Positions 41,282 to 61,971 are shown, numbered from the stretch's first letter. The stretch is 64,000 nt of DNA from Deltaproteobacteria bacterium (GCA_023265625.1 JAHFST010000004.1:129709-193708); one strand, 5' to 3'. Notes: generated by a model from the sequence alone, not told the origin. Made by a program: numbers and translations.

Positions 41282-42010
41282 ATGGCTGCTAACATCGACA
41301 AGGAGAAAAAGCAGCTCAACTTTCATTACGCCTTCACTTTACCGCAAAACCAGGTCAAAGAATTTCAGGTAGAACTTGATCCTGACTTGAATCTCATCAA
41401 AAGCCATCACGAGAGTTATCCCGATTGGACCAAACTCACGCATCATCAATGTGACAACTGTCCGCTCAAGCCGGAAGAACACCCTTATTGTCCCGCCGCC
41501 GTCGGCCTCGTCGATGTCATCGCGGCCTTCCAGACATCTACCTCCTTTGAAGAGGTGGATGTCCAGGTCGAATCCAAGGGCCGAACCTATGTCAAACATA
41601 CCTCGTTGCAAAAGGGACTCAGTTCTCTGATTGGGATCTATCTGGCGACCAGCGGGTGCCCCATCCTGGAAAAACTCAAACCGATGGTGCAGTTTCACCT
41701 TCCCTTCGCCACGCCCGATGAAACGATGTATCGCGCCATCTCCATGTACCTCGTGGCGCAATACTTTGTGCATAAACAAGGAAAGGTCCCAGACTGGGAG
41801 TTAGCGCACCTGACGGAACTTTACCAAGAAATCCACCAGGTCAACCGGGGTCTTGCCAAGCGGCTCCGCGAACTCCAACAAGGCGACGCCAATGTCAATG
41901 CCCTGGTCATTCTGGATTGCTTTGCCGAGGTCACCCAATTCTCCCTGAGCAAAAACAAGTTGGATGAGATCAAACGGATTTTTCAGGTGTATTTAGCATG
42001 CCCCGAGTGA
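41282..42010 (+). CDS. Hypothetical Cys-containing protein
   Basis: 242 aa with a HHQCDNCP...HPYCP motif. No family is recognised. It overlaps the trmL start. Confidence 0.4.
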   Translation: MAANIDKEKKQLNFHYAFTLPQNQVKEFQVELDPDLNLIKSHHESYPDWTKLTHHQCDNCPLKPEEHPYCPAAVGLVDVIAAFQTSTSFEEVDVQVESKGRTYVKHTSLQKGLSSLIGIYLATSGCPILEKLKPMVQFHLPFATPDETMYRAISMYLVAQYFVHKQGKVPDWELAHLTELYQEIHQVNRGLAKRLRELQQGDANVNALVILDCFAEVTQFSLSKNKLDEIKRIFQVYLACPE

Positions 42011-42441
42011 TCCTGCACCAACCGGAGATCCCGCAAAACACCGGCAACATCGGGCGGCTCTGCGTCGCCACCAACACCCCGCTCTATCTGGTGGAACCCC
42101 TGGGATTTTTTCTCGACGATGCCCAGATCCGCCGCTCCGGGCTTGACTATTGGCCCCATCTACAATTGCAGGTGGTCCCAAACTTTGCCACGATCAAACA
42201 ACAATTTCCAAAAAATCGTTTTTGGTTTCTCACCACGCGCACCCGGCGCACTTACACGTCCGTCCGTTTTCAACCGGACGATTTTTTGGTGTTTGGCTCC
42301 GAGAGTCGTGGCCTCCCCGAGGCCCTGTGGCGGGATTGCCCCGATGCGGTGATCTCGGTCCCGATGCCAGGACCCGTGCGCAGCCTAAACCTGGCCACCA
42401 CCGTGGGGATTGTGTTATACGAGGCATTGCGACAGCTATGA
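41998..42441 (+). CDS. trmL: tRNA (cytidine/uridine-2'-O)-methyltransferase TrmL (SPOUT)
   Basis: 147 aa. It has the IPQNTGNIGRLC and FGSESRGLP SPOUT motifs. Confidence 0.8.
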   Translation: MPRVILHQPEIPQNTGNIGRLCVATNTPLYLVEPLGFFLDDAQIRRSGLDYWPHLQLQVVPNFATIKQQFPKNRFWFLTTRTRRTYTSVRFQPDDFLVFGSESRGLPEALWRDCPDAVISVPMPGPVRSLNLATTVGIVLYEALRQL

Positions 42442-44372
42442 GCCTTAAAAAATCTAGATACCGACGTTCCCTGACTTCCATCGGCATGGCGTTTGGCATC
42501 GCCGGTATTTTATTAATCCTCTTCTACGCCTTTCCCTCCTCGAGCGGGGCCTGGATCCACCTGATTGAAAATAAAATCTTAGACTCGGAGTTTCGCAACA
42601 TCACACGTCCCCTGCAACCCGATCCCGCCATTGCGATTGTCGTGGTCAATGATACCGCCCTCACCGAGATGGAACCTCAGTATGGCCGCTGGCCGTGGCC
42701 GCGCCGGGCCATGGGGCAAATGGTGGAATATCTCCACCATGTCGGAGCGAGGGCGATGGCGATAGACATCCTCTATCCAGAGGCCCACCACCTCGATGCT
42801 GCCGGGGATCAATTTTTTGTCGATCAAGTCAAGGCCGCCGGTAATGTCGTCCTGGCTGCCGATTTTCCTGAACGCAACCCAAGCGCCGAACCAACCTCGA
42901 TAGATAGCCACGCCCTGACACGCTTTCAATTAAACAGCCTACCCAACACGCCGCTTCAGCTGCCAATCACGACAACACCTTTAATCCCGTTCCCGCAACT
43001 CTTGGCGGCCACCGCACAAATCGGTGGGATTCATTTTAATGCCGATCCTGACGGTCCTACGCGCCGTTACCGGCTGCTCTATTCTGTCAATAATGGCACG
43101 CAAGATTTATGCTTACCCAGCCTCGCTTTGGCCACCGCATTACAACTCAAAGTCCCAATCGATTGGCATCAATTGCTAGAGCCCGATGGCAGCTATTTGA
43201 TGAATTGGTACGGCCCTCATGGGACCTTCCCTTATATAGAGGCCAGTCGCTTGCTCCAAGCCTACCAAGAGTGGAAGCAAGGCGCGTCCGGCTCGCTCGA
43301 TCAAGAGGCTGCCGTTTTTTTTAAGGATAAGATCGTCTTGATCGGGGTGACCGCCACGGGGCTATTCGACCTACGTGCCACTCCCTTTTCGCCCATTTAT
43401 CCCGGAGTCGAGATCCATGCCACGGTGTTGTCAAATCTCATGCAACATCATTTCATCCGCGTCATCCCCCCCGCTGTGGGCATCCTCTATGTCTTGGGCA
43501 TCACGATCATCATGTCCTTAGTCGGCCGCTCGCTGCGCTCCCCGATTAAAGAAACACTCTTTATATTGTTCTTGGTGGGACTCATCATTACTTGTGGCCT
43601 CCTGAGTTTTGCTCACAACCTCTGGATCCCCATCGCCCTCCCCTTGTTGACATTATTTCTCATGGCCACCAGCACCATCTTCTGGAATTACTTCACCACC
43701 GGGCGTGAGAAACGATTCATCCGCGGGGCCTTTGCGCGTTATATCAATGAGGACGTCTTGGATGAGCTTTTGTCCGATCCGGAGAAGTTGGAACTGGGGG
43801 GCGAAAACGCCACCTTGACGGTACTTTTTTCCGACATTCGTGGTTTTACCTCCCTCTCCGAGAAACTCGCCCCCAATGAAGTCGTCGCCTTGCTCAATGA
43901 ATACCTTACGGCCATGGTCGATATCGTCTTTGAGTATCATGGCACCCTCGACAAATTTATTGGCGACGCCGTGATGGCCTTTTGGGGCGCCCCCATTAAA
44001 ACAGCAGACCACGCCGCAAGCGCCGTCCGGGCTGGACTGGCCATGCTCGCCAAGGCGCAAGAACTGCGCACCAAGTGGCTGGCGGAAGGTAAACCGGCCC
44101 TGGAAATCGGCATCGGAATCAACACCGCGGAGATCACGGTAGGGAACATCGGCTCCAGCCGATCCCAAAGCTACACCGTCATCGGCGACGGCGTTAATTT
44201 GGCCTCCCGTTTGGAATCGTTGAATAAGACCTATCACACTCATCTCATTATCAGTGAATTCACGTACGCACAGGTCAGGGATCAGGTAGAAGCGCGACTG
44301 TTGGATGATGTTCAGGTGAAAGGGAAGGAGCAAAGTGTGAAGATTTATGAGGTAACTGGGTGGAGAGGCTAA
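42438..44372 (+). CDS. CHASE2-sensor class III adenylate/guanylate cyclase
   Basis: About 644 aa from ATG (MSLKKSRY). It has a periplasmic CHASE2 region, 3-4 TM helices, and a cyclase homology domain (FSDIRGFTSLSE, FIGDAVMAFWGAP). Confidence 0.8.
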   Translation: MSLKKSRYRRSLTSIGMAFGIAGILLILFYAFPSSSGAWIHLIENKILDSEFRNITRPLQPDPAIAIVVVNDTALTEMEPQYGRWPWPRRAMGQMVEYLHHVGARAMAIDILYPEAHHLDAAGDQFFVDQVKAAGNVVLAADFPERNPSAEPTSIDSHALTRFQLNSLPNTPLQLPITTTPLIPFPQLLAATAQIGGIHFNADPDGPTRRYRLLYSVNNGTQDLCLPSLALATALQLKVPIDWHQLLEPDGSYLMNWYGPHGTFPYIEASRLLQAYQEWKQGASGSLDQEAAVFFKDKIVLIGVTATGLFDLRATPFSPIYPGVEIHATVLSNLMQHHFIRVIPPAVGILYVLGITIIMSLVGRSLRSPIKETLFILFLVGLIITCGLLSFAHNLWIPIALPLLTLFLMATSTIFWNYFTTGREKRFIRGAFARYINEDVLDELLSDPEKLELGGENATLTVLFSDIRGFTSLSEKLAPNEVVALLNEYLTAMVDIVFEYHGTLDKFIGDAVMAFWGAPIKTADHAASAVRAGLAMLAKAQELRTKWLAEGKPALEIGIGINTAEITVGNIGSSRSQSYTVIGDGVNLASRLESLNKTYHTHLIISEFTYAQVRDQVEARLLDDVQVKGKEQSVKIYEVTGWRG

Positions 44373-44374
44373 CA

Positions 44375-45595
44375 TCACCCTACCATTTTCCCCGCAAGCG
44401 GCAACGACTTAATATGCCCTTCAATAATCGCAATGACATGTTTCGATAAAGGCAGATGTTTGCGCTCGCTCCGCCAAACTTGACGAAAGCGTTGCACCGT
44501 TTCTTTGGCGGTATGGATTACCAATGGCTCCGGTAACCCGGCCTTCGCGGCCAAATAGGACAATTGTGACTGGGACAATTCCGCCATGCGCCTGGATTTG
44601 ACAAGCTTGAGCGCCATTTGCTCGTCGGGGATATAGCCGATGGTGGAAACAAAATCATAGCCTGGCGCCAATTTCGCCTTTCTCCGATCAGGATAGATGA
44701 GTGACCAATTTTTAAGGTGCATATCCGCATTGCCGATGAGGGTGTTAAACACCAAACGACGGATAAATTCGACAAGGCCGTCATGACCCGTCTCCTGCCA
44801 AAGCACTTCGGCAATTTTTTTGTAACTCCCCTTGCGGTATTTGTCGTCGGGATAGACGCCAAACACCTGAGCAAAGTCTTCCATGTGTACGGGACCGCTG
44901 CCGGTGCGGTCAAAACGACGCACCGCCAAAGCTGGTCCGTGCATGTCCCCGATATTCTCTGGCAAACCGGATATTCCATCCATATCAACCAGTCGCAGCT
45001 CCGGTATGTCCATGCCCATGTGCCGTGCCAGGGTCATCATAGAATATTCGTTTTCCGGCACCCCCACGAAGCGCGCGGATGGAAACTTCACAATCCACGA
45101 ACCACCCACCCCTTCGGCTGGAACCGTCAAACCCCCTTTGGCCTCCATGACAGCCGAAAATTTGAGCTGCACCCCCGCCAGCGAAAAACGCAGCACATTT
45201 TTGCGCGCGAGGGACACGCCGTCGGTCACGGCCGGGGGCCAAGTCGTGCCATCTGAAGGCTCAATCGTAACCGCCCCGGGCAAATCCCGCCCCAAGACCC
45301 ACAGTAGAAAAAATTCGCGACGGACATTGACCCCAGCACGGGCCGCCAAATAATCCCGTAAGTGTCCTTCGGGCAATAAATTGGAAAAAAAGGCCGGTAG
45401 TCTCATGCGAGTCGGCTGGATGTCGGTAATCAACCCACCCAAACGATCCTGAAAAGAAAGACTCAAGACCGGCCGCCGGGGATTGTCTTGGTAAGACTGG
45501 CTAAAGCTAAAGATCGTCTGCTCCCCCGGCAGGAAGGTCAATACCCCCAGGATTTCGCCATGCAACAAAACGTTTAGCGAGTGAATATCCGGCAT
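44375..45595 (-). CDS. hipA: HipA-family Ser/Thr kinase toxin
   Basis: 406 aa with HipA N- and C-terminal domain character. It lies directly downstream of an HTH protein. Confidence 0.7.
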   Translation of the reverse strand: MPDIHSLNVLLHGEILGVLTFLPGEQTIFSFSQSYQDNPRRPVLSLSFQDRLGGLITDIQPTRMRLPAFFSNLLPEGHLRDYLAARAGVNVRREFFLLWVLGRDLPGAVTIEPSDGTTWPPAVTDGVSLARKNVLRFSLAGVQLKFSAVMEAKGGLTVPAEGVGGSWIVKFPSARFVGVPENEYSMMTLARHMGMDIPELRLVDMDGISGLPENIGDMHGPALAVRRFDRTGSGPVHMEDFAQVFGVYPDDKYRKGSYKKIAEVLWQETGHDGLVEFIRRLVFNTLIGNADMHLKNWSLIYPDRRKAKLAPGYDFVSTIGYIPDEQMALKLVKSRRMAELSQSQLSYLAAKAGLPEPLVIHTAKETVQRFRQVWRSERKHLPLSKHVIAIIEGHIKSLPLAGKMVG

Positions 45596-45597
45596 CC

Positions 45598-45906
45598 TCA
45601 GACCTCGTCCTGCGACTCGTCATCCAGGGTGTAGGCGGGGCCGACGGCATAATCACGAGTGTCTTTGGCGGTCATCAATCCCTTCACCAACGCAATGTGC
45701 TGACGAGGCACCAACAGGACCTCCAACTCCAACATTCGCGTCATTTCAACAAAACTGCCCAACGTCACATTCACACGACCCGCCTCAATCTTGGATAGAT
45801 GGCTCTGAGGTATGCCGAGCTGACCTGCCAGTTCCCTTTGGGTCAACCCTTGTGCCACACGGGCTGCTTTGAGTTCTTGGATAAGTTGTTGGATGTTTAG
45901 ATTCAT
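45598..45906 (-). CDS. hipB: HipB-like HTH XRE antitoxin
   Basis: 102 aa with the helix-turn-helix segment QGLTQRELAGQLGIPQSHLSKIE. It is 3 bp upstream of hipA. Confidence 0.7.
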   Translation of the reverse strand: MNLNIQQLIQELKAARVAQGLTQRELAGQLGIPQSHLSKIEAGRVNVTLGSFVEMTRMLELEVLLVPRQHIALVKGLMTAKDTRDYAVGPAYTLDDESQDEV

Positions 45907-46067: not shown

Positions 46068-46370
46068 ATGAACAAAAAGTCTATTTTTTTCCCCAAAAGT
46101 TTTTTTCTGGCGGGCCTGTTTTTGGCCCTTCCCGTGTTGCAATCTGACGCCTTCGCCACCGGGAAAAAAGGCCTCTTTAGTTCCAGTTCGCGCGACCTCT
46201 CCGGCACCGCTGGAGTTCGCGGTGGCGATGTGATGGGAGATGCCATCAAGGAGGCCGCGCCAAATCCAAACGCCGTAAGAGCCATGGAGGCGCGGCGCGT
46301 CCCGACTGCTCAGTTGGAATCCTTTCAGCGTCAGGGTAAAGTGGGACATTTTGCGCGAGGGGGTTCATGA
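46068..46370 (+). CDS. Small secreted hypothetical protein
   Basis: 100 aa with a signal peptide. It is translationally coupled to the M48 peptidase gene. Confidence 0.45.
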   Translation: MNKKSIFFPKSFFLAGLFLALPVLQSDAFATGKKGLFSSSSRDLSGTAGVRGGDVMGDAIKEAAPNPNAVRAMEARRVPTAQLESFQRQGKVGHFARGGS

Positions 46371-47224
46371 GATTATTACACCGCAAAGTGGGCTTCGCCC
46401 TGCTGCTCGCTTCTTTGCCCTTGGCCAACGCCCATGCCTTCGGTTTTGACGTGATTGGGGCCGTTGGGACGATGGGAAAGATGGCGAAGGGGGCCACAAA
46501 GGTCGACTTGCAAGAAGAGCTCGCCATGGGACGGCAATTCTCCGGAATGATCCTCGGGGCCTTTGCCCCTAGCCACAATGCGGCCCTGAACACTTATGTC
46601 TCTCAGATAGGCCTGACCGTCGCGCAGGCGAGTGTCCGTCCCGATATGGACTACCATTTTCAAGTCATCTCAGCCCGCGACTCGTCGGGGGCCCCAATTG
46701 TCAATGCCTTCTCGACCCCAGGGGGTTTCATTTTTATCACGGAGGGTTTAATCAAGAGCCTTAACTCCGAGGCGGCGTTAGCCGGGGTATTAGCCCACGA
46801 AGTGGCTCACGTGGCGGAAAAACATGTCATCAAAGAGATTCATCGAAATAATGTTAAATCAGGCCTGCTAGAATTGGGTGGCAATGTGGCCTCCTCCGCA
46901 GGAGGCGTTGCAGGGGAGATCTCATCCGTATTGAGTTCCGCCCTGGTCAGCAACCTCTTTGAAAAGGGGCTCGACAAGGGGGATGAGTATCGTGCCGATG
47001 CAGCCGCGGTGGCATACGTCAGCAAGGCGGGCTATGACCCTCGTGGTTTGGTGATATTTCTCCAAACTATTGAAGCCAAAGAGGGTAAAAATTACAGCAC
47101 CCTACTTCGTACCCACCCCAAACCTCAGGACCGTATCGCCCGAATTGAAAAATTGATTAAGGATAAAAAAATATCATCAGAAGGTAAACAAACCTTGGCG
47201 GATCGTTGGAAAAGAAGCTCGTGA
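46367..47224 (+). CDS. M48-family zinc metallopeptidase (BepA/LoiP-like)
   Basis: 285 aa. It has a signal peptide and the HEVAHV zinc motif. Confidence 0.8.
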   Translation: MRLLHRKVGFALLLASLPLANAHAFGFDVIGAVGTMGKMAKGATKVDLQEELAMGRQFSGMILGAFAPSHNAALNTYVSQIGLTVAQASVRPDMDYHFQVISARDSSGAPIVNAFSTPGGFIFITEGLIKSLNSEAALAGVLAHEVAHVAEKHVIKEIHRNNVKSGLLELGGNVASSAGGVAGEISSVLSSALVSNLFEKGLDKGDEYRADAAAVAYVSKAGYDPRGLVIFLQTIEAKEGKNYSTLLRTHPKPQDRIARIEKLIKDKKISSEGKQTLADRWKRSS

Positions 47225-48555
47225 AAAAATTAATTCTTTTAACCTGTCTCCTGACCCTGACGCTTCCTCACGTCTCCCTGGCAGCGGACAACCATGGCAA
47301 GGCCGAGATCGCCTTCTCAGAAGGCCTGTTGCTCCACCACAAGAAGGACTTTAAGGGGGCGGAACAACGTTTTGCCAAGGCCGTGCAACTCGATCCTCGG
47401 CACAAGAATGCCACCTACTTTTTAGGCCTGTCTCAATCAGAACAGGAAAAATATGAGGCGGCCATCAAATCCTTCACGTCGGTGATCGCTTTGCAGACAG
47501 AAGAACCGGAGCCTTATTTTTATCGGGCCCTGGCTTACTACCATTTAAAAAAATCCCCAGAGGCCCTGGCTGATTTTCAAAAGGCACAAAAGCTGGCCCC
47601 TACCGGGCAGGTGAAGGATCTGGCAACGAGTTACATCCGCAGCATGACGCAGAAAGAAACCCCTCTGATCACGAGTTCCCCGAGTCAGGGCAGTTCACAT
47701 CGTTGGTTTGCCAATGGCAGTTTGACCACTCAATTCGACACCAATGTAACCCTAAATCCCGACGCCTCCTCTGCCGCAACCTTGCCGACGGATAAGAATG
47801 ATTTACAATTCGCCATGCGCGGGGGTGGCGGCTATCACATTATTCGCAAGGGGCACTACCGCCTCACTACCGAAGGCTCTTACTACCAGTCCATTTACAC
47901 AGACCTCGATCGCTTCAATTATGGCCTGTTGCACCTGGAGGCGAACAACCAGTTTAAGTTTGGCAATTTTTCCATCCGTACGCCCACCGGTTATGAATTT
48001 TCCCTTTTGGGTCGGGACAAGTACCTGGGCGCCTTTTTTATGAAGCCTACCTTCAGCTACTTGTTAGCCAATCGTTTACTCACGCAATTTTCGCCCCGAT
48101 TGCGTTACGAGGGATTTTTCCAGACCTTAACCAACCAGGCGCAGAATCGAGACGCATGGAATATTCAATTGGAAATCGACGAGTTTTTGATGGGAGAAGA
48201 TCAGAAACATTATCTCAAACTTTCCTACATCTATGAAAAGAACGCCGCCAAGGGCAACGATTGGGATTACCACGCGCACCGAATGGGGCTGGCCTTCCTG
48301 ACGCCGATTCCATGGGGGATTGACTTTGACATCCATACGGAATTTACGATTGATCGTAAGTTTGCGCATGTGGATTCCATCATTGGGACGCAACGAGATG
48401 ATTTTGGCCAGGCCTTTGGTTTGAGTCTATCACGTAAGCTCATGGATCATTTGTCGGTGCGAGGACATTATGACTTTTTCCGGAACACCTCAAACCAGTC
48501 GTTCTTCACCTATGGACGCCATATCGCGGGGGTTACTTTTGCGACATCTTTCTAA
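47206..48555 (+). CDS. TPR-repeat outer-membrane beta-barrel protein
   Basis: 449 aa. It has a signal peptide, N-terminal TPR repeats, and C-terminal amphipathic beta strands ending in ..TFATSF. Confidence 0.6.
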   Translation: MEKKLVKKLILLTCLLTLTLPHVSLAADNHGKAEIAFSEGLLLHHKKDFKGAEQRFAKAVQLDPRHKNATYFLGLSQSEQEKYEAAIKSFTSVIALQTEEPEPYFYRALAYYHLKKSPEALADFQKAQKLAPTGQVKDLATSYIRSMTQKETPLITSSPSQGSSHRWFANGSLTTQFDTNVTLNPDASSAATLPTDKNDLQFAMRGGGGYHIIRKGHYRLTTEGSYYQSIYTDLDRFNYGLLHLEANNQFKFGNFSIRTPTGYEFSLLGRDKYLGAFFMKPTFSYLLANRLLTQFSPRLRYEGFFQTLTNQAQNRDAWNIQLEIDEFLMGEDQKHYLKLSYIYEKNAAKGNDWDYHAHRMGLAFLTPIPWGIDFDIHTEFTIDRKFAHVDSIIGTQRDDFGQAFGLSLSRKLMDHLSVRGHYDFFRNTSNQSFFTYGRHIAGVTFATSF

Positions 48556-49672
48556 AAAAATCCTCAGCGCGGCTTGGTTGTTTTTAATCCCTGGGTCCGT
48601 GCAGGCGGCCGAGGTGATCGGTGAAGTGGTCTTTGTCAAGGGGGATGCCTCTGTCTTACGGTTGGACACCCCCAAGTCGAATCCGTTGGCATTTGGCGAG
48701 GCTATCTATCCAATGGATACCCTGCAAACCGGGACAGGGGAACTCAAGATCCTGTTTCACGACAAGACGATGCTCAGTTTGGGGGCGTCTTCCAAGGTGT
48801 TGCTCACGGAATATGTCTATAATCCAAAAAAGTCAGAGCGTCGTTCGATCTTGGATATCCTGAAGGGCACGGTGCGAACCATTGTGGATCAACCAACCGC
48901 CGCCCTGAAAATCAACGACGTTCGATTGCAAACACCCACAGCCGTTGCCGGCATTCGAGGCACCGATGTGGGAATTCACGTCGCCGCCAATGGCGCCAGC
49001 TCGCAGATCAGTTGTTTTTCAGGACTCATTGAAACTTACCTCAAAAGCAATCCGGAGCAGAGGCTCATGGTGCAGGCTGGTAATTCTATCGATATCCGTG
49101 GTGCCACGCTCCCACCCAGCCCAACAGCCATTCCAGAAAGTGTGACAAAACAATTTTCCAGTCAGGTGCAGGGACCGCCGCTTCGTGATGTCCTCAATCA
49201 GTCAGGGGGCGGATTCCGTGAATCGGAGAGGCAAACACCGCCACCACCCCCTCCGCCGCCGCCACCCAATCAACGATCGTCATCACAGTCCCCTCCTCCT
49301 CCACCTCAGCGACTCGAAGCTCGCGATCCAGAGCCGGATTCACCGCCACCTCCTCAAGAAGGACAAGAAGGACCGGATACATTTGATCCTCAGTCTAATC
49401 CGGAATCAGGCCCACCACCTCCACCCCCGCCACCTCCTATTGTGCCAGGTGGGGAAGATAGTACCCCAAACGAACTGGGGCCAGATTCTGGTGATACAAC
49501 TTCGGATGGTGGCACCACGACAGGAGGAACAACCTCCAGCCCAATCGATGTCCCGATTAGCTTTCCCTCCCCCCCTGAAACTATCAGCGGAGGAACAACC
49601 GGTGGAGGAACATCCTCCACACCACCCGTCATCAACGTCCCTGTCAGTTTTCCTGGAGGAACCAACACATGA
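48512..49672 (+). CDS. FecR-domain protein with a Pro-rich low-complexity C-terminus
   Basis: About 386 aa from MDAISRG. It has a signal peptide, a FecR-like beta-sandwich region, and a polyPro tail with the repeated motif (I/V)(D/N)VP(I/V)SFP. Confidence 0.6.
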   Translation: MDAISRGLLLRHLSKKILSAAWLFLIPGSVQAAEVIGEVVFVKGDASVLRLDTPKSNPLAFGEAIYPMDTLQTGTGELKILFHDKTMLSLGASSKVLLTEYVYNPKKSERRSILDILKGTVRTIVDQPTAALKINDVRLQTPTAVAGIRGTDVGIHVAANGASSQISCFSGLIETYLKSNPEQRLMVQAGNSIDIRGATLPPSPTAIPESVTKQFSSQVQGPPLRDVLNQSGGGFRESERQTPPPPPPPPPPNQRSSSQSPPPPPQRLEARDPEPDSPPPPQEGQEGPDTFDPQSNPESGPPPPPPPPPIVPGGEDSTPNELGPDSGDTTSDGGTTTGGTTSSPIDVPISFPSPPETISGGTTGGGTSSTPPVINVPVSFPGGTNT

Positions 49673-50679
49673 AGATTATGAATAAAACGATCAATCTGAC
49701 TGGCCTTGCCTGTCTCATGCTTTTTTGGCTTGGATGCCAAGCTGCCGAACAAACCTCTTTGCCAAGGGAGCAAGTTATCACCCCCATTAGGATCGAGTTT
49801 GGTGCCTTAACCACCAACGTTCCAAGCAATGTGACTAAGATCAATTTAACGGTGACCGGTGGAACCGATTTTACGCCGATTTCAGACACAATCAGCATTT
49901 CTAGTTCACAGCAGGCCTCTTTCTCTAAAAGCATCCAAGTCGGCAGCCAAAGAGTCTTCACGGTGATCGCCAATGATTCAACGGACCCAAAGATTGGCTA
50001 CAAGGGAGTGTCCACGTTGGACATAGACTCGTCTTCCAGCTCAGTCCCGGTGTCTCTCCAGTACGTAAATTTTGCCCACGATTCCACCGGTGATGTGGGC
50101 GGCAGCGGCTTGGATATTATTGGCGTCAGCTTGAGCACGTCTGACAATGGAACCGCCACCGTTACTTCAGATGATATCTACCTTATCGCATTAACCATGG
50201 CGCAACCCATTCAGCCGGGGAGTTTCGTCGCCTTCATTGAATTTGATACCGATGAAGACCCTGATACGGGCAGGACTCAAACCAAAATTGACGCCCTGAG
50301 CGGCAGTGTAACCACCGGATTCAATTCTGGTTCGGAGTTTTATATGGTTTTACAAGATTTTGGGTCAGTATCATCTGCTTATAGTGTCAGTCTCTTTGAT
50401 AGGAACGATAACTCGGTGGACGTACCACAAACCGCCAACCTGGCTGCGGTCGCGAATGGTCCGAATATCATCCATTTGGCTATCAACTCCAGCGCCTTTG
50501 CCTCATTGATTGATGCCGACCAAGTCGGGGGGCTCAATGTGTTGGTTGGGGCGAAGAGCCCGCAGACGAGTCTGCTCCCTCCCAACTTTACCGCCTTCAC
50601 GCCAAGCGATGTGATGTTGGATCTGGATACCATTAGCACAATTCATTATGATCCAAGTTTTGATACGTCCGGTCTCTAA
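49669..50679 (+). CDS. Hypothetical lipoprotein
   Basis: 336 aa. It has a lipobox (WLGC) and a Ser/Thr/Asp-rich mature region. Confidence 0.5.
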   Translation: MKIMNKTINLTGLACLMLFWLGCQAAEQTSLPREQVITPIRIEFGALTTNVPSNVTKINLTVTGGTDFTPISDTISISSSQQASFSKSIQVGSQRVFTVIANDSTDPKIGYKGVSTLDIDSSSSSVPVSLQYVNFAHDSTGDVGGSGLDIIGVSLSTSDNGTATVTSDDIYLIALTMAQPIQPGSFVAFIEFDTDEDPDTGRTQTKIDALSGSVTTGFNSGSEFYMVLQDFGSVSSAYSVSLFDRNDNSVDVPQTANLAAVANGPNIIHLAINSSAFASLIDADQVGGLNVLVGAKSPQTSLLPPNFTAFTPSDVMLDLDTISTIHYDPSFDTSGL

Positions 50680-50700
50680 ACGTGTTATACTCTAGACCCT

Positions 50701-51564
50701 ATGAAAATACGCTTCTGGGGGGTTCGCGGTTCTATCGCTTCGCCGGGTTCAGACACCGCCCACTTCGGTGGTAACACCTCCTGCGTTCAAGTCATTGACC
50801 AGGGAGCGATGCTGGTCCTGGATGCGGGCACTGGGGCTCGTGGTCTCGGGGATTATTTAATCACTTCCAAGGCTCATTCTCTCAAAGATGTCCATGTCCT
50901 CTTGTCTCATTTTCATACCGATCATATCTGCGGGCTGCCATTTTTTGCCCCGCTCTATCAGGCAAAGGTCAATCTTCATCTCTACGGCCCCAAAGGATTT
51001 CGACGGCAACCCAGTGCCATTTTGGCCTCATTTTTTGCCGAGGAATTTTTCCCGATCGCCGTCACAAAACTCCCGGCCCAACTGGATTTTCATCCCCTGG
51101 GAAACGAGACGTTTGAGATCAACCCGTTTCAAATCACTTCGTTTTATGTCAACCATCCCGGCAGTGCCCTAGGGTACGTCATCCAGAGCAAACAATGCCG
51201 CATCGCCTATCTCAGCGACCATGAACCGATGAAGCAATACCAACACATCAAACAATCAACTCTCTTACATTATGAAAAGCTCCTTTTGGAGCACCTGGGG
51301 GGCGTCGATCTGCTCATCCACGATGCCCATTTTACCGATGCGGAGTATCCCAACTATCGCGGTTGGGGGCACTCCCCCTGGAGCGAAGCCGTTGCCCTGG
51401 CCGTCTCCTGCCGTGTCAAACACCTCGTGCTGTTTCACCACGCCCCCACCCACAGTGATGCGATGCTCAAGAAAAACCTACGCCAACTTCAGGCCCAGTT
51501 AAAAAAGAAAAAATCCCCCCTCAAGGTCTCGCTGGCCCGTGAGGGGACAACCATCACCTTGTGA
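50701..51564 (+). CDS. MBL-fold metallo-hydrolase (candidate class II-like cyclic-nucleotide phosphodiesterase)
   Basis: 287 aa with an HFHTDH metal-binding motif. The N-terminus is IRFWGVRGS. Confidence 0.6.
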   Translation: MKIRFWGVRGSIASPGSDTAHFGGNTSCVQVIDQGAMLVLDAGTGARGLGDYLITSKAHSLKDVHVLLSHFHTDHICGLPFFAPLYQAKVNLHLYGPKGFRRQPSAILASFFAEEFFPIAVTKLPAQLDFHPLGNETFEINPFQITSFYVNHPGSALGYVIQSKQCRIAYLSDHEPMKQYQHIKQSTLLHYEKLLLEHLGGVDLLIHDAHFTDAEYPNYRGWGHSPWSEAVALAVSCRVKHLVLFHHAPTHSDAMLKKNLRQLQAQLKKKKSPLKVSLAREGTTITL

Positions 51565-53471
51565 AGAAATTCCTTCTCGCATTTATTCCCGCCTTCTTCT
51601 TCTGCCTGGTTTTGTTGTTGGATCTTCCCCTCACGCGTTGGTTGGAACTGCGTTCCATTGATTGGCGCTTTGCCTGGCGCGGATCCATCCCCGCCACGGG
51701 CGAGGTGGTCATCGTCGCGATTGATGAAAAAAGTTTAAATGCGGAGGGCCGTTGGCCTTGGCCCAGGAAAAAAATTGGGGAATTGATTGACCAGATCAAT
51801 AGTCACCAACCTAATCTGCTGGAAATGGACATTATCTTCGCGGAACCGGATCAGGACGATCCAAGCCTAGCCGCCGCCTTACACCGCAGTGCCAATACCA
51901 TTTTGGGTTATTTCTTCTTCCAAAGTGAAAAAGAAGTATCGGACGCCGCCATCTCGCCAGAGAAGGTCGAGAGAAGTTTTCAATCCGTCCTCCCCACGGC
52001 CTTCCCAGAAATTACCGGCTTACAAGAAACCCTCCCCAATATGGGGGGATTGATTGCCAATACACCTCAGATAGCCGCCGCCACTTCGTCACAGGGTTAC
52101 TTTAATGCCTTTCCAGATGCGGATGGAACCATCCGACGTTTCCCCGTGATGATCCAGTTTCGTCACAAGATCTTTCCCTCCATGGGATTAGAAACGATGG
52201 TCCATCGAGAGGGAGGATTTTCCCCCATCCCGGTCCAAGACGGCGATGGCATCCTGCAAGGCATGAGCCTGGGGAGTCGATTCATCCCTACGAGTTCACG
52301 CGGCGAGGTTTTGATCAATTACCGGGGCGGGGAAGATCGATTTAACATCTACTCGGCCACCGATATCTTGCATGGCCTGGTCCCCTCCGAAGCCCTGCGA
52401 GGCAAAACTATCCTCGTAGGGGCTACCGCCATCGGCATCTACGACCTCCGCGTCACGCCCATTTCTCCCAACCTGCCCGGGGTGTTGGCTCAAGGTAATT
52501 TGCTGGACAATCTTTATCGTGGTGATTTTTTAGTCCAGAATTTTTCCACCAAACTTATTTCGCTGGGGGCCTTGATCGTCATGTCCCTCGTCCTCTCTTG
52601 GTCACTCTACCGGCTCAGCCTCCTGCTGGGGTTACTCCTCACCGTTGTCATCATTGGGAGCTATGGCCTCATCGTGCAATGGTGCTTTCAACACGGCTGG
52701 GTATTGTTCCTAGTCACCCCGATCCTTGCCGCCGTCACGCTCTACATGATCATCACCATTTACCGGGGCCTGACCGAAGAACGACAAAAGCGCGAACTCC
52801 GCAAGGCGTTTCGTTCGTATTTGCACCCCGACATTGTGGAAGAAATTATCAAAGACCCGACGGCCTTGAAACTCGGGGGGCAGCGCGCCGAGTGCACCAT
52901 CCTCTTTTCGGACGTCCGCAATTTCACCACCATCTCTGAACAGATGGCGCCGGAGACGCTCGTGCAAATGATGAATGAATATTTTGATCCCATCTCGCGG
53001 GAGATCATTGCCGCCGGGGGCTACATCGATAAATTTATCGGGGATGCCGTCATGGCCATCTTTGGCGCCCCCAAGAGCACCCCGGACCACCCCTTCCAGG
53101 CCTGCCAAGCCGCCCTCGCCATGCAGCGCAAGGTGAATGAGCTGGCCCCTCACTTTCGGGAAAAATTCGGCATCCCGGAATTCAAGATCGGCATCGGCCT
53201 CCACACCGGCCCGGTCATCATCGGCAACATGGGCACCAGCGAACGCCTCAACTACACCGTCATGGGCGACTCGGTCAACCAAGCCGCCCGCCTGGAGTCC
53301 TCCACCAAAGGGCTCGGGGTCACGATCCTCATGAGTGAACAAACCCAATCCAAACTACCCCCGGCGATAAAAAGTCGATTCATCGAAGAAATTAGCGTGA
53401 AGGGGAAGGCGGATAAGATCCGGGTCTACGAACTACTCGCCACTAATTCTCTGGATTCCTCGGAAACTTAA
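51561..53471 (+). CDS. CHASE2-sensor class III adenylate/guanylate cyclase (second copy)
   Basis: 636 aa with CHASE2 region, TM helices and a cyclase domain (FSDVRNFTTISE, FIGDAVMAIFGAP). Confidence 0.8.
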   Translation: MKKFLLAFIPAFFFCLVLLLDLPLTRWLELRSIDWRFAWRGSIPATGEVVIVAIDEKSLNAEGRWPWPRKKIGELIDQINSHQPNLLEMDIIFAEPDQDDPSLAAALHRSANTILGYFFFQSEKEVSDAAISPEKVERSFQSVLPTAFPEITGLQETLPNMGGLIANTPQIAAATSSQGYFNAFPDADGTIRRFPVMIQFRHKIFPSMGLETMVHREGGFSPIPVQDGDGILQGMSLGSRFIPTSSRGEVLINYRGGEDRFNIYSATDILHGLVPSEALRGKTILVGATAIGIYDLRVTPISPNLPGVLAQGNLLDNLYRGDFLVQNFSTKLISLGALIVMSLVLSWSLYRLSLLLGLLLTVVIIGSYGLIVQWCFQHGWVLFLVTPILAAVTLYMIITIYRGLTEERQKRELRKAFRSYLHPDIVEEIIKDPTALKLGGQRAECTILFSDVRNFTTISEQMAPETLVQMMNEYFDPISREIIAAGGYIDKFIGDAVMAIFGAPKSTPDHPFQACQAALAMQRKVNELAPHFREKFGIPEFKIGIGLHTGPVIIGNMGTSERLNYTVMGDSVNQAARLESSTKGLGVTILMSEQTQSKLPPAIKSRFIEEISVKGKADKIRVYELLATNSLDSSET

Positions 53472-54936
53472 AGAACGGCAACCGAACATTGTTGATCAAC
53501 AACTGATCCGCCCGGATCGCTTCGGGGGGTTCGTAGCCGACGAGGCCGCCGGCGGTCACGTAGTCATCCTGTTCCACACCGTCACCGGAGACGCCCAGGC
53601 CGCCGACCAAGACCATCTGGCCAGCCACGTCGGGTTTGTAGAGAGGGGAACTGCCGGGGAAGAAGACGATGCCGTTTTGGTTGGCGTTGGCCGGCTGGCG
53701 ACCCTGGGTGCAGGGGTTGGCGTCGTCAAAATTAAAGATGTCGCGAAACGGGCCCGGGCTCGTGCCGTCAATCCCGGAAGGAAAAAAGGGTTGGGAACCG
53801 AACCCGATAGTGCGATTGGTGATCGCGGTTCCCAGCGGAATGCCGGGGATCTGGTCGGCGGCGGCTACCGAGGTGCCACTAAAATAGGTCACATTGCGCG
53901 CCTTGGCCACCGCCACATCGATACTGAAAACCGTGCTATCCACCATGCGGTTAAGCCCCAAGACATTCCCCGCCAAGTCCGTCACGGCGATCACCATCTT
54001 GGCGCGTTGGCTGAGCGGGAGACGAATGGCCGCTCGGGTGAGATTGGCACGGGCGATGGCCTGGTCAATGATGGTTCGCACATCGGTCGCCAATAACTTG
54101 GGGCTGTCCGCTGTCGGGCTGTCGATCGGTGTCACCAAATCCCCATCCGGGGCAATGCCACCCGCAATCGGGACGACATTATAAACGCCATTGTCACTCC
54201 CCGCATTCGAACCGTCGGGTCGTGTCATCTGCTCCACAAACGGCAGTGCCACTCCATCAATAAAAATAACCCCAGGATCTGCCGGAGTGGGTGGAAAGAG
54301 CGCAAGCCCCTGCACCGCCGCAAACTCGGCCCGATCCGTTGAGACACCGGCCACGCCTAAGCCTCCCACCAATCGCCCCCCTTGAAATAAAGGTACCCCA
54401 CCCGGTGTCACGGTAATTCCATTTCCGGGCGAAACCCCATCCAAGGCCGTCGCCGGAGCGATCACCTTCCCGGCCGCAAAAACGGTATTGAACGAACAAC
54501 CGCGATTGGTGTGTTCAATACCAAACAAGGCCCCGGAGGCCGTATTCATAATCCCCGGGGGGAAATGTTCGCGACTAATGGAGTTCACCGTCCGGCTGGA
54601 GAGCGGGGCCTGGTCATTGGAAAAAAAAGCCCCGGTACGTGCCAAAGAAAGGGCCACCTCTTGATCAGCGGCCACGGCCCCTGGTTTGCTATAAACCGCC
54701 AAGGGCGTCCCGGCCCGGTCCACCACCGCAATGGTCTGGGTCGCATCATCCAAGGCCAGAGCCGCGGCTTGCACCACCGACGTCACATCCACCGCCGTCA
54801 GCGGGATGGGCGGCACGGAGATGGTTAAATCAACCGGAATGGCCGCTTTTTCCTGACAGGAAATCCCCGTAAGAAAGATCGCTATTAAGGAGACTAAATG
54901 CTTTTTTTTCCTATGCATTCGTTGTATGCCCGTCAT
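53443..54936 (-). CDS. Lipoprotein with two GlcG/HbpS-like (DUF336) domains
   Basis: 497 aa with lipobox LTGISC. There are two copies of a ...PLFQGGRLVGGLGVAGVS... / ...MVLVGGLGVSGDGVEQDD... type motif. Confidence 0.45.
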   Translation of the reverse strand: MTGIQRMHRKKKHLVSLIAIFLTGISCQEKAAIPVDLTISVPPIPLTAVDVTSVVQAAALALDDATQTIAVVDRAGTPLAVYSKPGAVAADQEVALSLARTGAFFSNDQAPLSSRTVNSISREHFPPGIMNTASGALFGIEHTNRGCSFNTVFAAGKVIAPATALDGVSPGNGITVTPGGVPLFQGGRLVGGLGVAGVSTDRAEFAAVQGLALFPPTPADPGVIFIDGVALPFVEQMTRPDGSNAGSDNGVYNVVPIAGGIAPDGDLVTPIDSPTADSPKLLATDVRTIIDQAIARANLTRAAIRLPLSQRAKMVIAVTDLAGNVLGLNRMVDSTVFSIDVAVAKARNVTYFSGTSVAAADQIPGIPLGTAITNRTIGFGSQPFFPSGIDGTSPGPFRDIFNFDDANPCTQGRQPANANQNGIVFFPGSSPLYKPDVAGQMVLVGGLGVSGDGVEQDDYVTAGGLVGYEPPEAIRADQLLINNVRLPFFKFPRNPEN

Positions 54937-54973: not shown

Positions 54974-56674
54974 TTGAGGACAATTTCTTTCGTTCTGTTG
55001 ATACTCCTCCTGACCTGCCAGGTCTGGCCCCACCATGCCTCGGCCCAGGTACTGCATCGCCGTCCCGTCACAAAAATGGTGAAACATCCCGAGACGCTCC
55101 CAAGTGAATCCGGTGATTTTCACCTGGGCTCAGAACCTATCCCGGACCGGTGGCAAATCAAGCCCCCACCCTATTCGGTCAATCAACCGGGTCATCTCTA
55201 CGACCCTTATAATCAAAATATCCTCAAGGGCGATTACCCGATCCTGGGACAAAATACCTTCCTGATCCTGACAGGTACCAGCGAGACCGTCATCGAAGCA
55301 AAAAAACTCCCGATCCCCAGCGGGGCTAGCGCGGCGGGTGCGGGCCGATTTAATTTTTTCGGCAATGGCAACCTCCTCGAGGTCAATCAACGGTTCAAAC
55401 CCACATTCCAACTCTACCACGGCAACACGGCTTTTAAGCCGCGCGATTGGGAGCTCCGCATCACCCCAGTGTTCAATCTCAACGCCTTGAACTCCCGCCA
55501 GCGCGGCGTGGTCAACGTCAATGTGCAAAATGGCACGAGTCGATTCCAATTTGATATCGCCCTACAGGAGGCCTTTGCCGAGTACCATCTCGTCAATGTC
55601 TCTCCTTACTATGATTTCATCTCGATCCGCGGGGGGATCCAACCCTTCACGAGCGATTTTCGTGGGTTCATCTTCAGTGATACCAACCTCGGCGGAAGGA
55701 TCTTTGGCAATTTATCCAACAATCGCTACCAGTGGAATTTGGCCGCCTTTGACATGCTGGAAAAAAGCACCAACAGCGAACTCAACACCTTTGCCCGCCG
55801 CGACCAGGAAGTCTTGATTGCCAATCTATACGCCCAAGATTTTTTTGGGCTGCTCGGTTGGACCAATCAATTCAGCGTCCATTGGAATCATGACCAGGGC
55901 TCCACGCATTATGACATCAACGGTGTCTTGACGCGCCCCGCCCCCATTGGGGCCGCTGTCCCACACAGGATTGATGCGGTCTACTTAGGCTGGACCAGTG
56001 ATGGTAAGATTGGGCGCGTCAACATCAACCACGCCCTCTATTTTGCGTTGGGGGAAGACAACTTGAATCTGATCGCCCAGCGTCGCACCAAAATCAACGG
56101 AACCATGTTTGCGCTAGAACTCTCTTATGATCGTGATTGGTATCGGCTTAAGAGCTCCTTCCTGTATGCCTCCGGCGATTCTAAACCACAAAATGGCACC
56201 GCCACTGGTTTTGATTCCATCCTCGACCTGCAAAAATTTGCCGGGTCGGAAAACAGTTTCTTCAACCACCAAGCCATTCGTTTGCTCGGGGTCAACCTGG
56301 TCCAAAAAAATAGCCTCCTCCCCAGCCTGCGCAGCAGTAAGATCGAAGGACAGTCTAATTTCGTGAACCCGGGGCTTTGGCTCTACAGCGTCGGAAGCGA
56401 TCTGGAATTGCGACCGGATCTGCGGGCGTTTGTAAACGTCAACTATCTCCGGTTTGACAATACCGCCTCTCTGCAATTGCTGCTCAATCAGGGAAATATC
56501 CGAAAAGACATCGGGGTCGATTACAGCCTGGGCTTGCAATACCGTCCGTGGCTGAATAACAATGTGATCGTGAATCTCTCCCAGGCGGTGTTTCAACCAC
56601 TGGGCGGGTTTCGGGATATTTTGACGTCTAATGTTTTGTATTCAACGACGATGAATGTGGTGGTGACGTTTTGA
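54974..56674 (+). CDS. Outer-membrane beta-barrel protein (candidate porin partner of the downstream cytochrome)
   Basis: 566 aa. It has a signal peptide (ASAQ), alternating hydrophobic beta-strand pattern, and a C-terminal ..NVVVTF. Its stop overlaps the next ATG. Confidence 0.6.
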   Translation: MRTISFVLLILLLTCQVWPHHASAQVLHRRPVTKMVKHPETLPSESGDFHLGSEPIPDRWQIKPPPYSVNQPGHLYDPYNQNILKGDYPILGQNTFLILTGTSETVIEAKKLPIPSGASAAGAGRFNFFGNGNLLEVNQRFKPTFQLYHGNTAFKPRDWELRITPVFNLNALNSRQRGVVNVNVQNGTSRFQFDIALQEAFAEYHLVNVSPYYDFISIRGGIQPFTSDFRGFIFSDTNLGGRIFGNLSNNRYQWNLAAFDMLEKSTNSELNTFARRDQEVLIANLYAQDFFGLLGWTNQFSVHWNHDQGSTHYDINGVLTRPAPIGAAVPHRIDAVYLGWTSDGKIGRVNINHALYFALGEDNLNLIAQRRTKINGTMFALELSYDRDWYRLKSSFLYASGDSKPQNGTATGFDSILDLQKFAGSENSFFNHQAIRLLGVNLVQKNSLLPSLRSSKIEGQSNFVNPGLWLYSVGSDLELRPDLRAFVNVNYLRFDNTASLQLLLNQGNIRKDIGVDYSLGLQYRPWLNNNVIVNLSQAVFQPLGGFRDILTSNVLYSTTMNVVVTF

Positions 56675-60365: not shown

Positions 60366-61214
60366 ATGTCGGCTGATGAAAGCTTTTTAGCAGAGGTGCC
60401 GTTTTTTAAGCTCCTCGATTTGGACGAGACCAGGGCCCTGGCCGCTGTCATGCATGAGGTTCATTTCAGCCCTGAGCAGATGTTGTTTCATTTTGGGGAT
60501 CGAGGGGATTGCCTTTACATTGTCAAGCGCGGCAAGGTTGAACTGTTCGTCAAGGATCATTCGGGTGAAAAGATCGTGTTACGGGTGGCCAACCCGGGGG
60601 ACTTGTTTGGCGAACTCGCCATGTTGGATAACGGCCCGCGGACCGCGTCGGCCGTTGCGGTGGAAGACACCGACCTGCTTATCTTGCACCAACAAGACCT
60701 CCTAAAATTCCTCCACAAAAAACCCGATGCCGCCCTGGACCTCTTGGCGGTGTTGGGAGGCAGGCTGCGAAAAACCAACGACCTCCTCAGGGGACGCGTG
60801 ACCCGGAATGCCAATGAGGAGATCAAGCAAGATTTAAGCTGGGGTCAAAGACTGGCCAACTTCATTGCCGAGTTCAGCGGCAGTATGCCTTTTCTGTTTA
60901 TCAACGCCGCCATGTTTGCCGTCTGGATCTTGCTCAACGTCAACATCATCCCCGGCTTTGTCCCCTTCGACCCCTACCCCTTCGGCTTCCTGACCATGGC
61001 CGTCTCCCTGGAGGCCATCTTCCTCAGCATCTTCGTCCTGCTGGCCCAAAACCTGATCGCCGCCAAAGACCGCATCCGCGCCGACATCGAATACGAAATC
61101 AACCTCAAGGCCGAACTAGAAATCGCCTACCTCCACGAAAAATTCGATCACATGAATGCGGAGATGCTGGGGCAATTGGAGCAGATTAAGAAGTTAGTAA
61201 AAGATAAATCGTAA
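60366..61214 (+). CDS. Cyclic-nucleotide-binding domain protein fused to a DUF1003-like two-TM membrane domain
   Basis: 282 aa. The cNMP-binding (CAP effector) signature is FGELAMLDNGPRTASAVAVEDTDLL. The C-terminus has 2 TM helices with a DPYPFGFLT motif. Confidence 0.65.
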   Translation: MSADESFLAEVPFFKLLDLDETRALAAVMHEVHFSPEQMLFHFGDRGDCLYIVKRGKVELFVKDHSGEKIVLRVANPGDLFGELAMLDNGPRTASAVAVEDTDLLILHQQDLLKFLHKKPDAALDLLAVLGGRLRKTNDLLRGRVTRNANEEIKQDLSWGQRLANFIAEFSGSMPFLFINAAMFAVWILLNVNIIPGFVPFDPYPFGFLTMAVSLEAIFLSIFVLLAQNLIAAKDRIRADIEYEINLKAELEIAYLHEKFDHMNAEMLGQLEQIKKLVKDKS

Positions 61215-61968: not shown

Positions 61969-61971
61969 AAA

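Follow-up and report, generated by a model that had tools for sequence, protein, structure and literature searches.

CHASE2 domains head many cyclases, kinases and phosphatases. In a 64,000-nucleotide stretch of DNA from a Deltaproteobacteria bacterium (GCA_023265625.1, JAHFST010000004.1:129709-193708), hereafter the window, a gene for a CHASE2 cyclase closes a run of seven plus-strand genes (g1 to g7), which an earlier note had read as a cell-envelope sensing operon with a cyclic-nucleotide output. Comparison with related loci shows that the conserved unit comprises five of these genes, g3 to g7, encoding an outer-membrane barrel protein, a secreted FecR-domain protein, a lipoprotein, a metallo-beta-lactamase (MBL)-fold hydrolase and the cyclase. 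We consider it probable, with a good deal of reserve, that g3 to g7 act across the envelope as the input module of a receptor adenylate cyclase, relaying an outer-membrane event to the synthesis of cyclic AMP (cAMP).

The closest precedent is a conserved cluster in the Campylobacterota that encodes a CHASE2 adenylate cyclase, a phosphodiesterase (PDE), a FecR protein and a tetratricopeptide repeat (TPR) protein (Mo et al., mBio 2022, PMC9239204); its authors proposed that the four clustered genes make up one pathway and have spread horizontally to other phyla. The same types of component are contiguous in the window (g3, TPR; g4, FecR; g6, MBL; g7, CHASE2 cyclase) and in the related loci L009-L011, L026, L027 and L031. 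The Campylobacterota neighbourhood was, however, described without a mechanism, and its TPR protein was not recognised as a Slam-like barrel, while the locus described here adds a conserved lipoprotein and, uniquely, an M48 peptidase and g1. The likeness is one of component type, and a one-genome-per-species scan with a barrel alignment recovered no Campylobacterota locus. Since clusters of this type have already been described as gene neighbourhoods, we regard the window locus as one variant of a module that is known but mechanistically unsolved.

Two further systems place a CHASE2 sensor downstream of envelope proteins. In the Clr pathway of Sinorhizobium meliloti, the CHASE2 cyclases CyaK and CyaD1/CyaD2 reportedly depend on NsrA, an outer-membrane barrel protein that acts upstream of them. 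Plasmid-borne CyaD1 without CHASE2 makes cAMP constitutively, which suggests an inhibitory role of CHASE2 until it is relieved. The S. meliloti regulon includes the FecR-domain protein SMc02177, which is dispensable for signal perception in that organism, and a TPR protein. NsrA, with about 1200 aa and a barrel at residues 600-1200 (an architecture cited second-hand), differs from the 444-aa TPR-barrel g3, and the S. meliloti pathway genes, unlike those of the window, do not form one operon. The Burkholderia 'BiofilmReg' operon and the PA4035/4036-type pairs of P. aeruginosa combine a LysM-FecR protein with a CHASE2 histidine kinase (PMC5192318). They resemble the present locus in having the gene for a secreted FecR-domain protein immediately upstream of one for a CHASE2 transmembrane sensor, and differ from it in an output through histidine kinase and response regulator, in LysM instead of a Pro-rich tail, and in having no outer-membrane barrel gene. 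The same 2016 paper calls the CHASE2 input unknown, and a literature search found no later mechanistic or structural study.

The individual components also have better-known parallels. The type 11 secretion system (T11SS, or Slam; DUF560, PF04575) shares with g3 the combination of TPR and 14-strand barrel and a partner or cargo gene next door. In T11SS that neighbour is a lipoprotein with an 8-strand barrel, whereas next to g3 stands the gene for a FecR-domain protein that bears a terminal strand motif, and hosts of the g3 family lie outside the Proteobacteria in which T11SS was surveyed. In the FecA-FecR-FecI system a periplasmic FecR domain likewise couples an outer-membrane protein to an inner-membrane transducer, but g4 lacks both the cytoplasmic anti-sigma domain and a transmembrane helix, the transducer here being a separate CHASE2 cyclase. 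A role for g4 as a FecIR-type anti-sigma factor was set aside on its domain layout and neighbours; no extracytoplasmic function (ECF) sigma factor or TonB-dependent receptor was found among the ten neighbouring proteins scanned (41282-61968).

Gene order in the window and in related loci

All seven plus-strand open reading frames (ORFs) stand at the positions that the earlier note gave, both in our own check and in the calls of an independent gene caller on the source contig (a metagenome contig of 205 kb, ENA ERZ27280176):

46068..46370, plus strand: g1, small secreted protein, 100 aa, lineage-specific; N-terminal hydrophobic segment, without a Pfam or NCBIfam family
46367..47224, plus strand: g2, periplasmic M48 zinc metallopeptidase, 285 aa, lineage-specific accessory (Pfam PF01435)
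47221..48555, plus strand: g3, outer-membrane protein with periplasmic TPR and 14-strand beta-barrel, DUF560/Slam-like (Pfam TPR, structural model)
48512..49672, plus strand: g4, secreted FecR-domain protein with a Pro-rich tail (Pfam PF04773)
49669..50679, plus strand: g5, lipoprotein of a small, fast-evolving family, 336 aa (invariant Cys23)
50701..51564, plus strand: g6, MBL-fold binuclear-metal hydrolase, putative cyclic nucleotide monophosphate (cNMP) phosphodiesterase (Pfam Lactamase_B_2)
51561..53471, plus strand: g7, inner-membrane CHASE2 class IIIb adenylate cyclase, as predicted (Pfam CHASE2 and Guanylate_cyc)

The junctions are as tight as had been described. Four-nucleotide ATGA/GTGA overlaps join g1 to g2, g2 to g3, g4 to g5 and g6 to g7; g3 and g4 overlap by 44 nt, or by 17 nt if TTG 48539 is the g4 start, and a gap of 21 nt separates g5 from g6. 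Such overlaps and so short a gap are the signature of translational coupling. Scans for promoters and terminators were uninformative, with several weak sites and no convincing terminator inside the operon. GTG 47221 is a more likely start for g3 than TTG 47206, and 48512 or 48539 a more likely start for g4 than 48470. The N termini of g1 to g5 are all signal-like and hydrophobic, as judged by eye from the sequence rather than with a signal-peptide predictor, and the gene directly downstream of g7 is convergent. As an observation, the run of seven genes is correct and lies far beyond chance.

Relatives of g3 were gathered by a word-index search, by a one-genome-per-species scan (18 loci, with a close barrel alignment as the query) and by contig look-ups; all ORFs of the related loci were then compared with the proteins of the window, and unassigned neighbours were scanned with Pfam. 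Removal of duplicates left 24 evaluable loci from deltaproteobacterial metagenome-assembled genomes (MAGs), Nitrospirota, Myxococcota, Omnitrophota and Planctomycetia, a set that leaves out the window, its sister strain (L033), L020, which lies on a truncated contig, and L032, which breaks off just past its second barrel gene. A FecR-domain gene directly adjoins the barrel gene in 23 of the 24, and in 16 a gene for a CHASE2 protein lies no more than a few genes away, nearly always directly downstream and in the same orientation. As a rule this protein is a cyclase; in one locus, L023, it is a PP2C phosphatase (CHASE2-SpoIIE). The order barrel, FecR, (lipoprotein), (MBL), CHASE2 cyclase, on one strand and with small gaps or overlaps, recurs in L006, L008-L012, L014, L015, L026-L028 and L031; variant orders occur in L016, L021 and L030, and L009 and L011 have a second FecR and lipoprotein pair ahead of the barrel. 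The two bracketed genes are confined to the closer clade. Of 27 distinct loci, the window included, 8 have the g5-type lipoprotein (besides the window, L009, L010, L011, L026, L027, L028 and L031, the last a 330-aa gene without a family match that is assigned from position and size only), and the g6-type MBL stands beside the cyclase in seven of the 27 (the window, L009, L010, L011, L026, L027 and L031).

The conserved unit is thus five genes, g3 to g7, and not seven. Two of the seven, g1 and the M48 gene, are not co-conserved outside the sister strain, an outcome that the earlier note had named as refuting its reading, and the claim of a conserved seven-gene operon is not borne out to that extent. 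What does hold, from the locus comparison and from the literature, is that FecR-domain proteins are recurrent partners of CHASE2; the genetic tie between an envelope module (outer-membrane TPR-barrel, secreted FecR protein and lipoprotein) and a CHASE2 cyclase is likewise supported. Because the CHASE2 protein of L023 carries SpoIIE and those of Burkholderia and Pseudomonas are histidine kinases, the FecR partner tracks CHASE2 and not the output domain. This is our main argument that the FecR partner acts on the periplasmic input side.

The outer-membrane barrel and its FecR partner

The AlphaFold2 (AF2) model of g3 (pLDDT 84) has TPRs at residues 24-143 (47290-47649) and a 14-strand barrel at residues 162-443 (nt 47698-48552), closest among solved structures to the 14-strand porin OmpG, with a TM score of 0.70-0.74 normalised to the target. 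By its published definition, DUF560 pairs a periplasmic TPR region of some 140 aa with a 14-strand barrel, and g3 has this architecture, with both the N-terminal TPR domain and the 14-strand C-terminal barrel present. Its homologues connect it to the family at the level of profiles: P0020 (46% identity) matches SlipAM (PF04575) with 26.1 bits and P0022 (28% identity) with 24.8 bits across the entire profile, in each case above the cut-off of 22. An exhaustive search with the barrel region yielded 529 cluster representatives, and among the 95 barrel homologues scanned SlipAM is matched by 34 (best E 1e-13) and the Slam-specific TPR model TPR_Slam by 41; for the distant homologues the cluster records carried almost no taxonomy. 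Judging from these profiles and the model, the barrel appears to belong to the DUF560/Slam (type 11 secretion) superfamily. The point itself appears to be new, as a literature search found no paper mentioning both DUF560 and CHASE2, and the word 'cyclase' is absent from the T11SS cargo survey consulted.

An exopolysaccharide exporter of the PgaA/BcsC/PelB type, which also combines TPR and barrel, was considered for g3 and rejected; those barrels have at least 16 strands, and no glycosyltransferase or polymer synthase is encoded among the neighbouring proteins scanned. L011, which belongs to the complete MAG chromosome CP064976.1, has two ORFs in place of one barrel gene (9983-11340), one for the TPR part and one for the barrel part, owing either to a frameshift or to an assembly error, and the NCBI annotation of the barrel half is DUF560 domain-containing protein.

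The FecR partner, g4, consists of a signal-like N terminus, a FecR domain (E 6e-13, nt 48716-49030) and a tail of 161 aa that is 28% Pro (about 49187-49669), with no other hydrophobic segment. No solved structure is related by sequence to its FecR region, and its best NCBIfam matches, far under the cut-off, are the Leptospira FecR-domain surface adhesins Lsa33 and LipL45. The tails of the FecR partners end in a shared signature, in which [LIV]PGG is followed by a variable stretch rich in Pro, Gly and Thr and then by an alternating-hydrophobic terminal strand ending in FP or FQ (examples are PVxVPxxFP, ATITITFPQ and TVLNFTLVFQ). In g4, IVPGG lies at 49439-49453 and the strand motif is carried twice, as SPIDVPISFP (49538-49567) and PVINVPVSFP (49625-49654). 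A simple pattern for the motif picks out 14 of the 24 FecR partners and just 1 of 278 control ORFs, and two further partners match when Ser is permitted at the first position. The motif sits at the extreme C termini of the FecR partners of L006, L009-L014, L016, L017, L019 and L026-L028, its variants track barrel subfamilies, and, L017 excepted, the large FecR proteins encoded in loci without CHASE2 in view lack it. This C-terminal signature, too, appears to be new.

In distant relatives the barrel and FecR genes are followed by a gene for a large surface-type protein, sometimes without CHASE2 in view. NosD-like beta-helix lipoproteins occupy this place in L016 (9995-19541), a 1763-aa Big_9 protein in L030 (7001-15200), and L029 (1528-15617) has two tandem triplets with CLIPPER/DUF11 proteins of 932 and 2826 aa. 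The barrel and FecR pair may serve large surface proteins in such lineages. Seen across these loci, the third component of the module is variable and would probably be surface-exposed.

Lipoprotein, hydrolase, cyclase and the surrounding genes

In the window the third component is g5, which belongs to no Pfam family. Its sequence shows a hydrophobic segment at the N terminus, a lipobox Cys23 that is invariant in the family, and the conserved family motifs NFxNFAxD, IEFDxDxxxxTG and NVLxG; the family amounts to only 7 proteins among 5.8 billion clusters. The AF2 model (pLDDT 65) consists of two beta-sandwich domains that matched only generic Ig/FN3-like folds and no specific PDB entry. No function is claimed for g5, because its relatives are few, its model is of low confidence and the fold matches are generic.

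The hydrolase g6 matches Lactamase_B_2 (E 6e-21) with an intact HxHxDH metal motif (HFHTDH, 50908-50925). A profile built from g6 and five of its orthologues finds RNase Z, ElaC and PhnP (E 2e-14 to 1e-7), and these matches place g6 together with them in the phosphodiesterase branch of the MBL enzymes. Against the NCBIfam model cyc_nuc_deg_phdiest (NF041851) it scores 47 bits, the cut-off being 400, and a scan of g6 and the five orthologues for PDE families at E <=1 showed marginal PDEase_II fragments (E 0.006-0.008) in only two of these proteins. Elsewhere the slot is filled differently: a class II cAMP PDE (PDEase_II, PF02112, 62 bits) lies immediately upstream of the barrel in L015, and a fusion of a receiver domain to an MBL domain (REC-MBL) adjoins the cyclase in L030. 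The hydrolase slot is flexible but consistently of a signalling type.

In g7, CHASE2 (PF05226, E 3e-58) spans residues 13-342 (51597-52586) and the cyclase domain (Guanylate_cyc, E 4e-28) lies at 52887-53432. Hydrophobic segments at residues 4-22, 332-350, 354-372 and 382-400, one before CHASE2 and three after it, indicate that CHASE2 is periplasmic and the cyclase domain cytoplasmic. Aligned to CyaB (3r5g) and 6fht, the motifs FSDVRNFT, IDKFIGD and YTVMGDSVNQAAR hold all six class III catalytic residues, namely two metal-binding Asp, an adenine-type Lys, a class IIIb Thr, an Asn and an Arg, and the closest solved structures are bacterial adenylate cyclases. By the established specificity rules of class III, the Lys/Thr pair predicts cAMP and not cGMP as the product. 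Where the earlier note had allowed for either nucleotide, the cAMP half is kept as a prediction from sequence and the cGMP half is dropped.

Two more genes of the window bear on the cyclic-nucleotide output:

42438..44372, plus strand: cyc2, second CHASE2 adenylate cyclase, as predicted (Pfam, full catalytic residue set)
60366..61214, plus strand: cNMP_binding and DUF1003 membrane protein, candidate cAMP reader, loosely linked (Pfam)

Pfam confirms cyc2, already listed as a second CHASE2 cyclase in the earlier note; it has the same full set of catalytic residues as g7 and no FecR or barrel partner of its own. In L026 a single gene, for the Mg2+/Co2+ channel CorA, stands between the cyc2 orthologue (E 3e-253) and the barrel gene, and judging from this arrangement cyc2 is ancestrally adjacent to the module. 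A DUF6901 gene lies just upstream of cyc2, together with a SpoU methylase (41282-42441, plus strand), and L026 has, besides the cyc2 orthologue, a DUF6901 gene just upstream as well (1735-2454); a recurrent association of DUF6901 with the cyclase is possible. The protein at 60366-61214 has matches to cNMP_binding (E 3e-25) and DUF1003 (E 1.5e-29) and two hydrophobic segments. As a cNMP-binding gene it was correctly recognised, but in the window its tie to the module is loose, at a distance of 7 kb, though cNMP-binding genes of four different architectures do stand beside the module in L008, L021, L028 and L032. In L008 (14011-15702) and L028 (16890-17341) a protein with two cNMP_binding domains and a PqqD-like part follows the cyclase, in L028 also with Peptidase_M50 matches. 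The L028 protein adjoins several ORFs of about 66 aa, one of them with a Frankia_peptide match; there cAMP may control a system of peptides resembling ribosomally synthesised and post-translationally modified peptides (RiPPs).

Upstream of the barrel the window has an arrangement of its own. g1, with a hydrophobic segment at residues 6-24, has no Pfam or NCBIfam match. Compared with the sister strain L033 (93% nucleotide identity), however, 17 of its codon changes are synonymous and 4 non-synonymous, and 17 of 22 substitutions fall at third codon positions, a bias that marks g1 as a real gene. A GAGGGGG precedes the ATGA overlap of g1 with g2, which matches Peptidase_M48 (E 6e-30) with the motif HEVAH at 46796-46810. 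g2 is a protease domain only, aligning to positions 33-251 of the 483 in the BepA profile. It reaches 81.7 bits against the NCBIfam equivalog for BepA, whose cut-off is 570, and matches just the protease half; an identification as a BepA-type M48 protease was rejected, as the C-terminal TPR domain is missing and the score is far under the cut-off. The sister strain shares both g1 and the M48 gene, and a search of 480 kb found no counterpart of either in the 31 other loci. In the three closest other relatives (g3 identity 47-51%) their place directly upstream of the barrel is occupied by the CorA Mg2+/Co2+ channel gene, found by contig look-up:

L026, 4982-5959: CorA channel gene
L027, 7026-8000: CorA channel gene
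L031, 640-1623: CorA channel gene

No CorA was found among the ORFs of the window. The position of CorA hints that the module may have a link to divalent cations. A HipA/HipB toxin-antitoxin pair (44375-45906, minus strand) lies between cyc2 and g1, also in L033. Since L026 holds CorA alone in that stretch, the block of hipBA, g1 and M48 looks like a lineage-specific replacement. g1 and g2 would be a lineage-specific, co-translated add-on, which most likely processes or quality-controls the barrel or the g4 tail.

The convergent gene at the other end (53443-54936, minus strand) overlaps the 3' end of g7 by 29 nt and encodes a 497-aa protein with HbpS-like (haem-degrading) repeats; L027 also has an HbpS-like gene, of 492 aa, downstream of its module. 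With cyc2 and DUF6901 shared with L026 and the HbpS-like gene shared with L027, the window is syntenic with these two loci. Beyond the HbpS-like gene of the window (54974-60330, plus strand) follow a 566-aa ORF without a Pfam family and a gene for a 1219-aa protein with multihaem cytochrome motifs (MtrC/MtrF-like, c3 and c7) and LVIVD repeats, which is probably an extracellular electron-transfer protein. An RNA-ligase-like gene, a small helix-turn-helix (HTH) gene and a 133-aa ORF without a Pfam family (61225-62642, minus strand) are unrelated to the module.

A proposed relay across the envelope and competing explanations

In the relay that we favour, the FecR domain of g4 would bind CHASE2 and set the activity of the cyclase, and g3 would hold g4 at the outer membrane or thread its tail, by way of the Pro-rich stretch and the terminal strand motif. 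At about 0.3 nm per residue in extended form, the 161 residues of the tail would far exceed the width of the periplasm, so that g4 could cross it. g5, as a variable surface or periplasmic protein, would provide a surface for sensing a ligand or a contact. An outer-membrane event would alter the contact between g4 and CHASE2 and hence the synthesis of cAMP; cNMP-binding proteins would read the signal, and g6 would reset it by hydrolysing cAMP. In outline the earlier interpretation of the locus is right, and it is partly supported. A more specific form of the relay, to which we give tentative and rather doubtful standing, takes the TPR-barrel as a hitherto unrecognised Slam/DUF560 branch outside the Proteobacteria with a dedicated FecR partner, the two forming a tether from outer to inner membrane that gates CHASE2; in this form the terminal strand motif of the partner would dock in or thread the barrel, and the Pro-rich tail would span the periplasm. 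If true, it would give the T11SS family a role in signalling and CHASE2 its first defined input mechanism.

Several observations weigh against this account. The barrel and FecR genes occur without CHASE2 in view in six to seven loci (among them L017, L018, L022, L024, L025 and L029), so that the pair can evidently work without the cyclase, although several of these contigs are short. The g3 protein itself falls below the Pfam threshold for SlipAM and matches TPR_Slam at E 0.024. We infer the binding of g4 to CHASE2 and to g3 from the adjacency of the genes. As for the hydrolase, the nearest solved relatives of g6 are the tRNA-processing RNase Z enzymes, and it matched no cyclic-nucleotide PDE family in Pfam; with its sub-threshold NF041851 score, the degradation of cyclic nucleotide by the MBL protein, as the earlier note had it, is not supported in that form, and a cAMP-degrading role for g6 is something that we infer.

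The same envelope proteins might have secretion as their primary business, with g3 as a Slam-like translocon that places g4, g5 or both on the surface as adhesins or binding proteins, and the cyclase either co-regulated or monitoring the load. We think this unlikely, though it draws on much of the same evidence: the g3 family overlaps SlipAM and TPR_Slam and has the defining TPR and 14-strand architecture, the distant barrel and FecR pairs adjoin very large CLIPPER/DUF11, Big_9 and beta-helix proteins, sometimes with no CHASE2 in view, the best if far sub-threshold matches of g4 are Lsa33 and LipL45, and the conserved motif at the C terminus may serve as a secretion signal. Known T11SS cargo, however, has a C-terminal 8-strand barrel, and the neighbours of g3 show none; g4 ends in a disordered Pro-rich tail, and the g5 model (pLDDT 65) has two beta-sandwiches and no TbpB-, fHbp- or hemophilin-like structural match. 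Since g3 is in addition under the SlipAM threshold, we class it as Slam-like and not as a proven T11SS. A cyclase that is just co-regulated also fits poorly with the 16 of 24 evaluable loci in which CHASE2 follows the pair, mostly in overlapping or near-abutting genes. Secretion and relay are compatible in any case and do not exclude one another.

Quality control of the envelope, in which a BepA/LoiP-like M48 peptidase and the TPR-barrel would act in the assembly or turnover of outer-membrane proteins and cAMP would be a general output of envelope stress, strikes us as decidedly improbable. The best NCBIfam matches of g2 are indeed BepA and LoiP, its gene is translationally coupled to that of the TPR-barrel, and the L013 module holds a metallopeptidase as well, although one of the M10 type, different from M48. 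But M48 is absent from all related loci bar the sister strain and therefore cannot define the function of the module, and g2 lacks the TPR half of BepA, with a BepA score of 82 bits where 570 are needed. Lower still we rank a Pycsar-like anti-phage system, very improbable indeed in our view, in which g7 would be the signalling cyclase, the cNMP-binding membrane protein would act as its effector and g6 would be an Apyc1-like degrader. PADLOC models for PycC match the cyclase domains (E 3e-30), its PycTIR/effector models match the cNMP-binding domain, and a weak precomputed Pfam match to Apyc1 is recorded for g6; the PADLOC matches, however, extend no further than the cyclase and cNMP-binding domains, which are generic. 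Rather than a soluble pyrimidine cyclase, g7 is a membrane receptor with CHASE2 and an adenine-type Lys/Thr pair, the candidate effector lies 7 kb off behind a convergent gene, and the conserved partners are envelope proteins.

With the relay as the favoured account, the comparison narrows the question of the CHASE2 input to a Slam-like barrel, a FecR protein with a C-terminal docking motif and a variable lipoprotein. The Slam link and the tail motif make that question approachable by experiment. The comparison also suggests that the type 11 secretion family reaches beyond the Proteobacteria and was perhaps recruited for signalling.

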